A DNA stretch of 64,000 nucleotides from NCBI RefSeq assembly GCF_011045215.1, contig NZ_CP049201.1; one strand, written 5' to 3'. Shown here piece after piece: positions 24,301 to 47,995 of the stretch. How positions within the stretch are numbered: the stretch's first letter is position 1; the number at the start of each line of letters is the position of its first letter. The position numbers and the translations under genes were made by a program. The notes beneath the pieces are model-generated. The model was not told where the DNA came from. It searched no databases and worked only from the letters and a program-made list of their open reading frames with translations. The DNA comes from Escherichia coli (GTDB lineage Bacteria > Pseudomonadota > Gammaproteobacteria > Enterobacterales > Enterobacteriaceae).

Positions 24301-27167
<2,867 letters not shown>

Positions 27168-27605
27168 TTATCGTTCATGAGAAGCATAACGTAAAGAGAA
27201 GAGCTCGATTAGACGGCAGGATTTGTCAGGGGTTATGAACGAAATTCATAAATCTGTTTGAGTGTTGCGATGGGTAGTGCAAGTTCGATATCTCCGCAAT
27301 TTACAGTCCGATAAAGGAAAATTAATATCCATAAAAAATATATCGGTTTATCCTGGCGTATATACCTACTTCGACGTATTTCTAATAGTTGCTAATTAAA
27401 GGCAGGTCATTATTATTCACTCTGAATAATGAATTATTCACTGTCCGCAGAGTAAGAAATATAACTTAAGTATCTATTTAATGACTTGCACAAAAAGCTA
27501 AATTTTCACCCATAAATAAAAATATAATCCCGCGCCCAACCACCTGATGAGTGGCTACAGGCACTGGATATATTAGGTGGCGGTGTACTTTCTTACATAA
27601 AGGTA

Positions 27606-27650
27606 TTTCCTTTTCTGCGGAAAAGGAAACCGGGAAATCCCCGGTTTTTC
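27606..27650 (+). promoter_or_regulatory. leader stem-loops upstream of eaeH (terminator-like hairpin plus overlapping alternative hairpin)
   Basis: Hairpin TTTCCTTTT/AAAAGGAAA (27606-27629) overlaps by 3 nt with hairpin AAACCGGG/CCCGGTTT (27627-27647), which is followed by a T-run; 68 nt upstream of the eaeH ATG. Confidence 0.35.
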
Positions 27651-27717
27651 TGACAAGCAGACGCCATTATTTGTGTCTGCCTATGTTCGTTAATTCGTTC
27701 ATCAGGAAATTATCTCA

Positions 27718-30700
27718 ATGTCACGTTATAAAACAGGTCATAAACAACCACGATTTCGTTATTCAGTTCTGGCCCGCTGCGTGGCGTGGGCAAATATCTC
27801 TGTTCAGGTTCTTTTTCCACTCGCTGTCACCTTTACCCCAGTAATGGCGGCACGTGCGCAGCATGCGGTTCAGCCACGGTTGAGCATGGGAAATACTACG
27901 GTAACTGCTGATAATAATGTGGAGAAAAATGTCGCGTCGTTTGCCGCAAATGCCGGGACATTTTTAAGCAGTCAGCCAGATAGCGATGCGACACGTAACT
28001 TTATTACCGGAATGGCCACAGCTAAAGCTAACCAGGAAATACAGGAGTGGCTCGGGAAATACGGTACTGCGCGCGTCAAACTGAATGTCGATAAAGATTT
28101 CTCGCTGAAGGATTCTTCGCTGGAAATGCTTTATCCGATTTATGATACGCCGACAAATATGTTGTTCACTCAGGGGGCAATACATCGTACAGACGATCGT
28201 ACTCAGTCAAATATTGGTTTTGGCTGGCGTCATTTTTCAGGAAATGACTGGATGGCGGGGGTGAACACCTTTATCGACCATGATTTATCCCGTAGTCATA
28301 CCCGCATTGGTGTTGGTGCGGAATACTGGCGCGATTATCTGAAACTGAGCGCCAATGGTTATATTCGGGCTTCTGGCTGGAAAAAATCGCCGGATATTGA
28401 GGATTATCAGGAACGCCCGGCGAATGGTTGGGATATCCGCGCAGAGGGCTATTTACCTGCCTGGCCGCAGCTTGGCGCAAGCCTGATGTATGAACAGTAT
28501 TATGGCGATGAAGTCGGGCTGTTTGGTAAAGATAAGCGCCAGAAAGACCCGCATGCTATTTCTGCCGAGGTGACCTATACGCCAGTGCCTCTTCTGACAC
28601 TGAGCGCCGGGCATAAGCAGGGCAAGAGCGGTGAGAATGACACTCGCTTTGGCCTGGAAGTTAACTACCGAATTGGCGAACCTTTGGCGAAACAACTCGA
28701 TACGGATAGCATTCGCGAGCGTCGGGTACTGGCAGGCAGCCGCTATGACCTGGTTGAGCGTAATAACAACATCGTTCTTGAGTACCGCAAATCTGAAGTG
28801 ATCCGTATTGCTCTGCCTGAGCGTATTGAAGGTAAGGGCGGTCAGACACTTTCCCTGAGGCTTGTGGTCAGCAAAGCAACTCACGGACTGAAAAATGTGC
28901 AGTGGGAAGCGCCGTCATTACTGGCTGAAGGTGGCAAAATTACCGGTCAGGGTAGTCAGTGGCAAGTAACGCTCCCTGCTTATCGTCCAGGCAAAGACAA
29001 TTATTATGCGATTTCTGCGGTTGCCTACGATAACAAAGGCAATGCCTCAAAACGCGTGCAGACAGAGGTGGTCATTACCGGAGCAGGTATGAGCGCCGAT
29101 CGCACGGCGTTAACGCTTGACGGTCAGAGCCGTATTCAAATGCTTGCTAACGGTAATGAGCAAAAACCGCTGGTGCTGTCTCTGCGCGACGCCGAGGGCC
29201 AGCCAGTCACGGGCATGAAAGATCAGATCAAGACTGAACTAGCCTTCAAACCGGCTGGAAATATTGTGACTCGTTCCCTGAAGGCCGCTAAATCACAGGC
29301 AAAGCCAACACTGGGTGAGTTCACCGAAACTGAAGCAGGGGTGTATCAGTCTGTCTTTACTACCGGAACGCAGTCAGGTGAGGCAACGATTACTGTTAGC
29401 GTTGATGGCATGAGCAAAACCGTCACTGCAGAACTGCGGGCCACGATGATGGATGTGGCAAACTCCACCCTGAGCGCTAACGAGCCGTCAGGTGACGTGG
29501 TTGCTGATGGTCAGCAAGCCTATACGTTGACGTTGACTGCGGTGGACTCCGAGGGTAATCCGGTGACGGGAGAAGCCAGCCGCTTGCGATTTGTTCCGCA
29601 AGACACTAATGGTGTAACCGTTGGTGCCATTTCGGAAATAAAACCAGGCGTTTACAGCGCCACGGTTTCTTCGACCCGTGCCGGAAACGTTGTTGTGCGT
29701 GCTTTCAGCGAGCAGTATCAGCTGGGCACATTACAACAAACGCTGAAGTTTGTTGCCGGGCCGCTTGATGCAGCACATTCGTCCATCACCCTGAATCCTG
29801 ATAAACCGGTGGTTGGGGGGACAGTTACGGCAATCTGGACGGTAAAAGATGCCTATGACAACCCTGTGACCAGCCTCACGCCGGAAGCGCCGTCATTAGC
29901 GGGTGCCGCTGCTGTAGGTTCTACGGCATCGGGCTGGACAAATAATGGTGATGGGACGTGGACTGCGCAGATTACTCTCGGCTCTACGGCGGGTGAATTA
30001 GAAGTTATGCCGAAGCTAAATGGACAGGATGCGGCAGCAAATGCGGCAAAAGTAACCGTGGTGGCTGATGCGTTATCTTCAAACCAGTCGAAAGTCTCTG
30101 TCGCAGAAGATCACGTAAAAGCCGGCGAAAGCACAACCGTGACGCTTATTGCAAAAGATGCACATGGCAACGCTATCAGTGGTCTTTCGTTGTCGGCAAG
30201 TTTGACGGGGACCGCCTCTGAAGGGGCGACCGTTTCCAGTTGGACCGAAAAAGGTGACGGTTCCTATGTTGCTACGTTGACTACAGGCGGAAAGACGGGC
30301 GAGCTTCGTGTCATGCCGCTCTTCAACGGCCAGCCAGCCGCCACCGAAGCCGCGCAGTTGACGGTCATCGCCGGAGAGATGTCATCAGCGAACTCTACGC
30401 TTGTTGCGGACAATAAGGCTCCGACCGTCAAAACGACGACGGAACTCACCTTCACCGTGAAGGATGCGTACGGGAACCCGGTCACCGGGCTGAAGCCAGA
30501 TGCACCAGTGTTTAGCGGTGCCGCCAGCACGGGGAGTGAGCGTCCTTCAGCAGGAAACTGGACAGAGAAAGGTAATGGGGTCTACGTGGCGACCTTAACG
30601 CTGGGATCTGCCGCGGGTCAGTTGTCTGTGATGCCGCGAGTGAACGGCCAAAATGCCGTTGCTCAGCCACTGGTGCTGAACGTTGCAGGTGACGCATCTA

Positions 30701-31971: not shown

Positions 31972-32091
31972 TATTAAGAGTATGAAAGTAACATTCTAAT
32001 AAACAATAATGGCGTTGACATCTTCAACGCCATTATTTATTGAATTTCCTGACAGTAGTCTCGTTATAAATTCATTTAGACATAGCGACAG

Positions 32092-45961: not shown

Positions 45962-47995
45962 ATGACAGACCTTTCACACAGCAGGGAAAAGGACAAAATC
46001 AATCCGGTGGTGTTTTACACCTCCGCCGGACTGATTTTGTTGTTTTCCCTGACAACGATCCTGTTTCGCGACTTCTCGGCCCTGTGGATTGGCCGCACGC
46101 TGGACTGGGTTTCTAAAACCTTCGGTTGGTACTATCTGCTGGCGGCAACGCTCTATATTGTCTTTGTGGTCTGTATCGCTTGTTCGCGTTTTGGTTCGGT
46201 GAAGCTCGGGCCAGAACAATCCAAACCGGAATTCAGCCTGCTGAGTTGGGCGGCGATGCTGTTTGCTGCCGGGATCGGTATCGATCTGATGTTCTTTTCC
46301 GTAGCCGAACCGGTAACGCAGTATATGCAGCCGCCGGAAGGCGCGGGACAGACGATTGAGGCCGCGCGTCAGGCGATGGTCTGGACGCTGTTTCACTACG
46401 GCTTAACCGGCTGGTCGATGTATGCGCTGATGGGCATGGCGCTCGGATACTTTAGCTATCGTTATAATTTGCCGCTCACCATCCGCTCGGCGCTGTACCC
46501 GATCTTCGGTAAACGGATTAACGGGCCGATAGGTCACTCAGTGGATATTGCGGCGGTGATCGGCACTATCTTCGGTATTGCCACTACGCTCGGTATCGGT
46601 GTGGTGCAGCTTAACTATGGCTTGAGCGTACTGTTTGATATTCCCGATTCGATGGCGGCAAAAGCGGCACTGATCGCCTTGTCGGTGATAATCGCCACTA
46701 TCTCGGTGACATCCGGTGTCGATAAGGGCATTCGCGTGTTATCGGAACTTAACGTTGCGCTGGCGCTGGGGCTGATCCTGTTCGTGTTGTTTATGGGCGA
46801 CACTTCGTTCCTGCTTAATGCACTGGTGCTGAATGTTGGCGACTATGTGAATCGCTTTATGGGCATGACGCTCAACAGTTTTGCCTTCGACCGTCCAGTT
46901 GAGTGGATGAATAACTGGACGCTCTTCTTCTGGGCATGGTGGGTGGCATGGTCGCCGTTTGTCGGCTTGTTCCTGGCGCGTATCTCGCGTGGGCGTACCA
47001 TTCGCCAGTTCGTGCTGGGCACGTTGATTATTCCGTTTACCTTCACGCTGTTATGGCTCTCGGTGTTCGGCAATAGCGCGCTGTATGAAATCATCCACGG
47101 CGGCGCGGCATTTGCCGAGGAAGCGATGGTCCATCCGGAGCGCGGCTTCTACAGCCTGCTGGCGCAGTATCCGGCGTTTACCTTTAGCGCCTCTGTCGCC
47201 ACCATTACTGGCCTGCTGTTTTATGTGACCTCGGCGGACTCCGGGGCGCTGGTGCTGGGGAATTTCACCTCGCAGCTTAAAGATATCAACAGCGACGCCC
47301 CCGGCTGGCTGCGCGTCTTCTGGTCGGTGGCGATTGGCCTGCTGACGCTCGGCATGCTGATGACCAACGGGATATCCGCGCTGCAAAACACCACGGTGAT
47401 TATGGGGCTGCCGTTCAGCTTTGTGATCTTCTTCGTGATGGCGGGGTTGTATAAATCTCTGAAGGTAGAAGATTACCGCCGTGAAAGTGCCAACCGCGAT
47501 ACCGCACCGCGACCGCTGGGGCTTCAGGATCGCCTGAGCTGGAAAAAACGTCTCTCGCGCCTGATGAATTATCCGGGCACGCGTTACACTAAACAGATGA
47601 TGGAGACGGTCTGTTACCCGGCAATGGAAGAAGTGGCGCAGGAGTTGCGGTTGCGCGGCGCGTACGTGGAGCTAAAAAGCCTGCCACCGGAAGAGGGACA
47701 GCAGTTGGGTCATCTGGATTTGTTGGTGCATATGGGCGAAGAGCAAAACTTTGTCTATCAGATTTGGCCGCAGCAATATTCGGTGCCGGGCTTTACCTAC
47801 CGCGCACGAAGCGGTAAATCGACCTACTACCGGCTGGAAACCTTCCTGTTAGAAGGCAGCCAGGGCAACGACCTGATGGACTACAGCAAAGAGCAGGTGA
47901 TCACCGATATTCTTGACCAGTACGAGCGGCACCTTAACTTTATTCATCTCCATCGTGAAGCGCCGGGCCATAGCGTGATGTTCCCGGACGCGTGA
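45962..47995 (+). CDS. betT: BCCT-family choline transporter
   Basis: 677 aa, 12 transmembrane BCCT core plus a long hydrophilic C-terminal tail. Confidence 0.9.
   Translation: MTDLSHSREKDKINPVVFYTSAGLILLFSLTTILFRDFSALWIGRTLDWVSKTFGWYYLLAATLYIVFVVCIACSRFGSVKLGPEQSKPEFSLLSWAAMLFAAGIGIDLMFFSVAEPVTQYMQPPEGAGQTIEAARQAMVWTLFHYGLTGWSMYALMGMALGYFSYRYNLPLTIRSALYPIFGKRINGPIGHSVDIAAVIGTIFGIATTLGIGVVQLNYGLSVLFDIPDSMAAKAALIALSVIIATISVTSGVDKGIRVLSELNVALALGLILFVLFMGDTSFLLNALVLNVGDYVNRFMGMTLNSFAFDRPVEWMNNWTLFFWAWWVAWSPFVGLFLARISRGRTIRQFVLGTLIIPFTFTLLWLSVFGNSALYEIIHGGAAFAEEAMVHPERGFYSLLAQYPAFTFSASVATITGLLFYVTSADSGALVLGNFTSQLKDINSDAPGWLRVFWSVAIGLLTLGMLMTNGISALQNTTVIMGLPFSFVIFFVMAGLYKSLKVEDYRRESANRDTAPRPLGLQDRLSWKKRLSRLMNYPGTRYTKQMMETVCYPAMEEVAQELRLRGAYVELKSLPPEEGQQLGHLDLLVHMGEEQNFVYQIWPQQYSVPGFTYRARSGKSTYYRLETFLLEGSQGNDLMDYSKEQVITDILDQYERHLNFIHLHREAPGHSVMFPDA

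Follow-up and report, generated by a model that had tools for sequence, protein, structure and literature searches.

FdeC is a broadly conserved adhesin of Escherichia coli that is studied as a vaccine antigen and is almost silent in the laboratory. The controls of its gene, fdeC (also eaeH), described in the literature consulted here comprise only repression by H-NS and the influence of temperature and pH, and no mechanism is given for the sharp threshold between 37 and 39–42 °C. FdeC is repressed by H-NS and, in APEC, is induced at 42 °C (PMC11143625), and in EHEC, according to the passage of the same article that cites Easton 2014, the protein was detected only at 39 °C or above. The sequence in front of the gene raises the question of which kind of control, if any, is encoded in its leader. 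Here, we analyze a 64,000-nucleotide stretch of E. coli DNA (contig NZ_CP049201.1), henceforth termed the window, in which fdeC is a 1417-aa ORF that starts at 27718 on the plus strand. A preliminary description of this DNA had pointed to two mutually exclusive hairpins upstream of the gene, the second followed by a T-run, in the layout of an attenuator or the 3' end of a small RNA. A search of the literature on fdeC/eaeH for sRNAs, Hfq, transcription starts and promoters found no description of this leader. Our analysis indicates that the element is a conserved, plus-strand RNA structure linked to fdeC. We favor, at a probability of about 0.5, the reading that fdeC has a structured 5' leader in which the second hairpin and its U-run truly work as an intrinsic terminator and end part of the transcripts early.

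Around position 27600 the plus strand reads, from 5' to 3', CATAAAGGTA, TTTCCTTTTC, TGCG, GAAAAGGAAA, CCGGG, AAATC, CCCGG, TTTTT and CTGACA. The two hairpins (HP1 and HP2), their three-base overlap, the T-run and their coordinates had been drawn correctly in the preliminary description, as can be read directly from the sequence, and the distance to the eaeH ATG, given there as about 70–110 nt, measures 68–112 nt. HP1 had been drawn with the arms TTTCCTTTT (27606–27614) and AAAAGGAAA (27621–27629), to which C27615-G27620 adds a tenth pair. HP2 is built on a core of CCGGG (27630–27634) paired with CCCGG (27640–27644) around the loop AAATC (27635–27639), and its stem can be extended to 8 bp via A27627–29/U27645–47. 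The AAA at 27627–27629 is common to HP1 and HP2, and three of the five T of the T-run form the 3' end of HP2 as first drawn.

Features of the fdeC leader, in window coordinates (paired segments are separated by a slash)
Feature	Position	Strand	Sequence and remarks
Conserved block	27485–27505	+	CTTGCACAAAAAGCTAAATTY; left edge of the fdeC-linked unit; invariant except the last base (T/C at 27505)
TATAAT, −10-like	27523–27528	+	invariant, then GC-rich CCCGCGCC; putative fdeC leader promoter
SL-A	27540–27580	+	27540–27549/27571–27580; inner helix 27550–27553/27562–27565
Outer helix	27596–27605/27711–27720	+	CAUAAAGGUA/UAUCUCAAUG; includes the AUG; predicted
HP1	27606–27615/27620–27629	+	UUUCCUUUUC/GAAAAGGAAA; perfect 10-bp stem, UGCG loop
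HP2	27627–27634/27640–27647	+	AAACCGGG/CCCGGTTT; terminator-like
U-tract	27645–27652	+	UUUUUCUG; T5 run 27645–27649, then CTG; invariant in all sequences
SD helix	27646–27653/27702–27709	+	UUUUCUGA/UCAGGAAA; covers the SD, encloses HP3; predicted
HP3	27657–27680	+	GCAGACGC/GUGUCUGC; 27657–27664/27673–27680; 8-bp stem, 8-nt loop, −12.4 kcal/mol
Invariant 43 nt	27682–27724	+	direct repeat TTCGTT-AA-TTCGTT (27686–27699), SD AGGAAA 27704–27709, ATG 27718–27720

Folding of the leader, which the preliminary description had proposed as a check, shows HP1 and HP2 to coexist rather than to compete. Evaluated on 27600–27655, HP1 alone has a folding energy of −12.0 kcal/mol, HP2 alone −12.3 and the GC core of HP2 alone −9.2, while HP1 together with the HP2 core reaches −21.2 kcal/mol; the minimum-energy fold, at −22.0 kcal/mol, consists of HP1 less one pair and a 6-bp HP2. 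In longer contexts, pair probabilities within one ensemble are 0.85–0.91 for HP1 and 0.997 for HP2. The claim of mutual exclusion therefore fails: the energies are additive, both hairpins are present in the minimum-energy fold, and at least 85% of the predicted ensemble contains both. The 70-nt hairpin segment folds with z = −3.3, none of 200 dinucleotide shuffles equaling it, and its minus strand also folds (z = −2.5). Overlap of the two hairpins costs only terminal A-U pairs, in which three A stand opposite the U-tract, and the GC core of HP2 (27630–27644) is left untouched by HP1. At termination, the U of a U-tract lie in the RNA:DNA hybrid anyway. Because the overlap is confined to an A-tract facing these U, HP1 cannot be an antiterminator, and as modeled the two are coexisting hairpins and not a classic on/off attenuator.

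An attenuator in which a signal picks between HP1 as antiterminator and HP2 as terminator would account for the real overlap at AAA 27627–27629 and for the U-run behind HP2, and the leader resembles trp- and pyrBI-type attenuators and riboswitch platforms in having a terminator-like hairpin touched by a hairpin upstream. We nevertheless consider it very improbable, as the joint energy of the two hairpins is −22.0 kcal/mol, compared with about −12 for either by itself, and other partners of the HP2 5' arm are inferior. The best upstream competitor for this arm, which combines CCC or UCCCG from the extreme 5' terminus of the leader with GGU at 27602–04, is 4–9 kcal/mol worse than the terminator. 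Neither a structure that sequesters the terminator stem nor a sensing module was found in the leader. It contains no conserved leader peptide, its sole ATG (27548) reading ACG in a divergent lineage (E69, see below), and a search of 27100–27800 against Rfam at permissive thresholds gave chance-level matches only (best E = 0.23, far under the gathering score), with no known aptamer among them. Unlike the systems named above, the fdeC leader therefore lacks a competing HP1, a leader peptide and an aptamer, and does not belong to their class. Of the two readings offered in the preliminary description, the attenuator is accordingly dropped, while the other, the 3' end of a small RNA, is retained in the form of a short transcript from the leader promoter, which is equivalent to placing the hairpin in the adhesin's own leader.

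A d'Aubenton-Carafa-type terminator scorer was applied to the plus and minus strands of the entire 64 kb and considered 688 candidates consisting of a hairpin and a T-run. HP2 ranks sixth on the plus strand (d = 8.0; minus strand, −5.7), and only 12 of the 688 score above 0. Since most of the other top-scoring sites lie 9–36 nt past the stops of long ORFs, we regard the score as validated. The gene-end hairpin of fdeC itself (32007–32035) scores −1.7, below HP2. Just two plus-strand sites with a positive score have no ORF of at least 150 aa ending within 400 nt upstream: one is HP2, and the other (45999–46034) falls within an ORF at 45962–47995. A consensus terminator scan missed HP2 on the plus strand, for which we suspect the extension of the stem into the T-run as the cause. 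HP2 combines a stable GC-rich stem-loop, with the core and full-stem energies and the pair probability given above, with a 3' U-rich tract, UUUUUCUG, in which six of eight positions are U. The core has just five GC pairs and the run just five U, and termination may be partial or weak. Intrinsic terminators within the 5' UTRs of E. coli genes, which often yield 5'-UTR-derived sRNAs, were surveyed by Adams et al. 2021 (PMC7815308) and are a class already known as common in E. coli; the fdeC leader would be a new, unannotated member. As in that class, a GC stem-loop directly followed by a U tract is found on the coding strand, downstream of a putative promoter and upstream of the start codon, and the score of HP2 is within the range of real gene-end terminators of the same 64 kb. 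Unlike the surveyed terminators, HP2 does not appear in the K-12 tables of that paper, and its promoter is a candidate one.

The question of which gene the element belongs to can be approached from its genomic distribution. Of 5426 complete E. coli genomes, 5033 contain a 59-nt core of the element, at a median of one place per genome and a maximum of two across these 5033, and a REP/BIME/ERIC-type repeat was rejected on these numbers. None of the 40 records listed carries an annotated feature over the core, and in K-12 RefSeq nothing is annotated between ykgP and eaeH. The nearest upstream gene, correctly placed on the opposite strand in the preliminary description, encodes an aldo/keto reductase (minus strand, 26301–27152), and to the right of the element there is no minus-strand gene for more than 4 kb. 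A species-wide contig scan retrieved only three orthologous lineages outside standard E. coli, and three further contigs, one from a new lineage, came from a metagenome scan. In E69 (L005), L052 and L053, the upstream neighbor is a glutamate decarboxylase gene instead of the reductase gene (read for E69), and the contig of L054 ends just upstream of the element. Homology of all four to the window starts exactly at CTTGCAC (27485), which is preceded by three unrelated sequences. Because homology starts at this point where the upstream gene differs, the unit from 27485 to the ATG is, as judged from these sequence comparisons, one that travels with fdeC. Together with the finding that the element ends no upstream plus-strand gene, this makes its earlier assignment to the adhesin's own leader the most plausible one. 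The GC content rises from about 30% in 27250–27550 to 41–44% in 27500–27700. The conserved block at the left edge of the unit could be a regulator site or an upstream promoter element. Adjoining the unit on its left, an inverted repeat of the form TAAG-N8-CTTA (GTAAGAAATATAACTTAAG, 27453–27473) is loosely RcsAB-box-like; it is conserved in E. coli and absent from the E69 lineage. When the whole window and 38 loci that carry paralogous inverse-autotransporter genes were searched with a covariance model of the leader, no homologue was retrieved.

Structural conservation was compared in an alignment of 14 distinct sequences. Among 12 E. coli and clade sequences, variable columns make up 20–29% of the upstream intergenic DNA (27167–27484) and 10–16% of the leader, and none of the 36 columns in 27682–27717 varies. 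SL-A has three pairs that change on both sides across lineages, e.g., 27540/27580 from C-G via U.G to U-A, which argues that the plus strand is transcribed and folded 5' of HP1. In HP3, G27660A and C27677T are compensatory in the E69/L052/L054 lineage, and the G.U pair 27663/27674 is G-C in three lineages. Within the HP1–HP2 segment, four of the seven variable columns are loop positions. The HP2 loop varies at 27635, 27637 and 27639, and C27630U or C27642U converts stem pairs to G.U wobbles that are valid on the plus strand only; the top, loop-closing pair is lost once, in E. whittamii. Since the wobbles in HP2 and HP3 correspond to A.C mismatches on the minus strand, the selected structure is that of the plus strand. 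The HP1 stem is invariant in 13 of the 14 sequences, strain M8 carrying C27610A, which breaks one pair, and the sole common change is C27618T in the loop (B2 strains). This stem is kept by sequence and not by covariation, a pattern that a protein or DNA site would explain just as well. In a shuffling control, 4 of 500 shuffles reached the observed count of pairs with double changes; with few independent events, we regard the double changes as supportive rather than conclusive. A further stem-loop, SL-B (27585–27606), is not claimed here, as 9 of the 14 sequences cannot form its basal pair. On the minus strand of 27597–27605, an SD-like AAGGAAA in the HP1 arm is followed after 7 nt by ATG and then TAA, a start-stop mini-ORF with a weak match to the Rfam DUF2815 motif (E = 1.2) that is probably a coincidence.

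For transcription of this leader, the sequence offers one main candidate. The segment AAAAATATAATCCCG, which includes the TATAAT, is invariant in the 14 distinct sequences and contains the sole invariant −10-like element of the unit; it would place the start of the leader near G27532–C27535. The TATAAT has no good −35 hexamer, and a promoter scan did not call it. Promoter-like sites that the scan did report, at 27300–27328 and 27389–27416, are variable or absent in clades. Between 27650 and the ATG, no acceptable hexamer pair for a plus-strand promoter was detected, and the only match there lies on the minus strand (27693–27666), with its −10 within the variable HP3 loop. A sigma-32 promoter, CTTGCAC...CCCCAT at 27485–27516, was considered for heat induction and rejected as the conserved function: the CCCCAT is not conserved in E69, L054 and E. 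whittamii, and the spacing is 2–3 nt too long for the sigma-32 consensus. Likewise rejected was an RfaH ops element at GGCGGTGTACTT (27577–27588), which matches GGCGGT only and reads GGCGAT in E69 and GF47. The C-run at 27506–27511, between the conserved block and the TATAAT, reads TCACCC in the window, TCCCCC in K-12 (L002) and CCCCCCCC in strain 163 (L050), where two extra bases change the spacing from the block to the −10. In K-12, Cappable-seq (Ettwiller 2016, U00096.2) gives no start near the TATAAT, the plus-strand starts being 313045 (about window position 27181) and then 314502; term-seq (Adams 2021, PMC7815308) lists no eaeH 3' end, and SMRT-Cappable-seq (Yan 2018) nothing at the eaeH locus. 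These null results weigh little because eaeH of K-12 is truncated by IS3 and silenced by H-NS. The start at about 27181 lies 536 nt before the eaeH ATG, beside the start of the divergent reductase gene (the ykgP remnant), and no gene is known to use it.

Beyond HP1 and HP2, the leader as a whole is highly structured. The 131 nt from 27594 to 27724 fold at −44.7 kcal/mol (z = −5.6), a value equaled by none of 200 shuffles, and single-sequence folding of this segment and RNAalifold on the alignment independently found the same four-way junction. Two of its helices are predicted to pair the SD and AUG regions with upstream sequence, and its remaining arms are HP1 and HP2. The mean unpaired probability of SD and AUG is 0.09–0.20, compared with 0.37–0.39 when the upstream part is shuffled (0.37 ± 0.12 against the value of 0.09), and only 2–4.5% of shuffles are as low. 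For the SD alone, masking is not significant, as 17% of shuffles do as well, and the masking helices have no covariation support, since their paired nucleotides are all invariant. With increasing temperature, ViennaRNA predicts a gradual change: from 37 to 42 °C, the unpaired probability of the SD rises from 0.19 to 0.26 and the helix probability falls from 0.76 to 0.64. The 43 nt at 27682–27724 have no variable column among 12 E. coli and clade sequences and are invariant also in E69, L052 and L054. This invariance holds even in lineages that are about 16% diverged nearby and exceeds what an SD and a start codon need; an sRNA or a protein may bind there.

Taken together, the favored reading would work as follows. 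The leader would be transcribed on the plus strand from a promoter in 27485–27534, with the TATAAT as the best candidate and a start near 27532–27535. HP1 would act as a stacked upstream hairpin and not as an antiterminator, and the GC core of HP2 with UUUUUCUG would stop a fraction of transcripts at about 27649–27652, releasing an RNA of about 115–120 nt as a by-product and lowering fdeC expression on top of silencing by H-NS. In RNA that is read through, the U-tract and the following CUGA (27646–27653) would pair with the SD (27702–27709), and CAUAAAGGUA with the AUG region (27711–27720), so that a four-way junction, with HP1, HP2 and the helix carrying HP3 as arms, would hide the RBS.

The RNA released by such a terminator could also be the functional product. 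A stand-alone, trans-acting sRNA of about 115–120 nt, comprising SL-A, SL-B, HP1 and HP2, with fdeC transcribed separately or by read-through, would make use of the same signals: the −10-like element and the terminator bracket a 118-nt RNA that folds at −45.4 kcal/mol (z = −4.3), the covariation in SL-A falls within it, and an A/U-rich stretch followed by a hairpin and a terminator resembles the 3' ends of sRNAs. The element likewise shares with Hfq-type sRNA 3' modules its two tandem hairpins with a terminal U-run, as well as the strong folding of the 118-nt RNA. We find this rather unlikely, because fdeC would still need read-through given that the stretch from 27650 to the ATG has no convincing plus-strand sigma-70 promoter, and because no Rfam family, no annotated feature in the 40 records listed and no K-12 start or 3' end was found for such an RNA. 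Differing from Hfq-type modules, the fdeC U-run has five U, which is presumably short for an Hfq-dependent sRNA, and the element is co-conserved with the RBS region directly downstream. Neither an extended poly-U tail nor conservation of a single-stranded seed was found; no seed is obvious, and the single-stranded parts (27581–27600 and the loops) are the least conserved, whereas the RBS region of fdeC is the most conserved.

HP2 might conversely not terminate at all, the hairpins being a scaffold for a fold that controls translation or stability, for instance in the manner of a thermometer, with the U-run serving as an anti-SD sequence. Both minimum-energy folding and RNAalifold yield the junction, its paired segments are invariant, the unpaired probability of SD and AUG is lower than in 95.5–98% of shuffles, and FdeC is reported, in the passage of PMC11143625 on this point, only at or above 39–42 °C. 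This alternative is nonetheless improbable: a GC hairpin followed by UUUUUCU should give at least some termination and scores like real terminators, the predicted opening of the SD is gradual, the masking helices lack covariation, and the Rfam search gave no match to FourU or ROSE. Still less probable is an element that acts as DNA or on the minus strand, i.e., the perfect palindrome TTTCCTTTTC-N4-GAAAAGGAAA as an operator for a dimeric regulator and possible roadblock downstream of the promoter, or the hairpin pair as a terminator, minus-strand or bidirectional, that protects the reductase gene against antisense transcription coming out of fdeC. The HP1 arms are indeed conserved in sequence, without covariation and with a variable spacer; the consensus scan called HP1 terminator-like on the minus strand, which also folds to the extent noted above. 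Against such an element stand its persistence next to fdeC when the upstream gene changes, the A.C mismatches that replace the wobbles of HP2 and HP3, the HP2 score of −5.7 compared with +8.0 on the plus strand, the absence of a minus-strand gene over more than 4 kb to the right and, to our knowledge, the lack of a match of the palindrome to any known operator consensus.

Premature termination in a structured fdeC leader, the reading we favor, would bear directly on how the adhesin is kept silent. A terminator-grade hairpin and a predicted masked RBS provide a concrete, mutable target for explaining this silence, and fdeC reporter fragments that end 5' of 27650 would miss part of the control. 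Given the reported FdeC phenotype, with which control after initiation would be compatible, a post-initiation, heat-sensitive step may plausibly exist. A bolder proposal is that 27594–27724 is a four-way-junction riboregulator that combines a long-range RNA thermometer with a terminator and is opened at 39 °C or above or by alkaline pH; we judge it distinctly unlikely, and if true, the thermometer junction would be the unexplained switch that limits FdeC production to 39–42 °C. FourU-type thermometers, such as that of Salmonella agsA, resemble the fdeC leader, in whose predicted fold a U run is paired to the AGGA within the SD, and FdeC is reported to be heat-induced. They differ in that the fdeC pairing is long-range and closes a multi-helix junction, that its predicted melting is gradual, and that the leader has no Rfam match.

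Individual genomes carry disruptions at this locus. The closest complete genome, O157:H7 PV15-279 (99.5% identity), carries fdeC as an annotated pseudogene (internal stop) and a shortened reductase gene beside an IS66-family element (ISEc8); both genes are intact in the window, which therefore does not derive from a typical O157:H7 genome. In E. coli FDAARGOS_943 (NZ_CP065615.1), an IS4-like element, ISEc60, is inserted within the 3' arm of HP2 at about 27642, after CCGGGAAATCCCC, leaving fdeC and the promoter-proximal part of its leader on opposite sides of the insertion.
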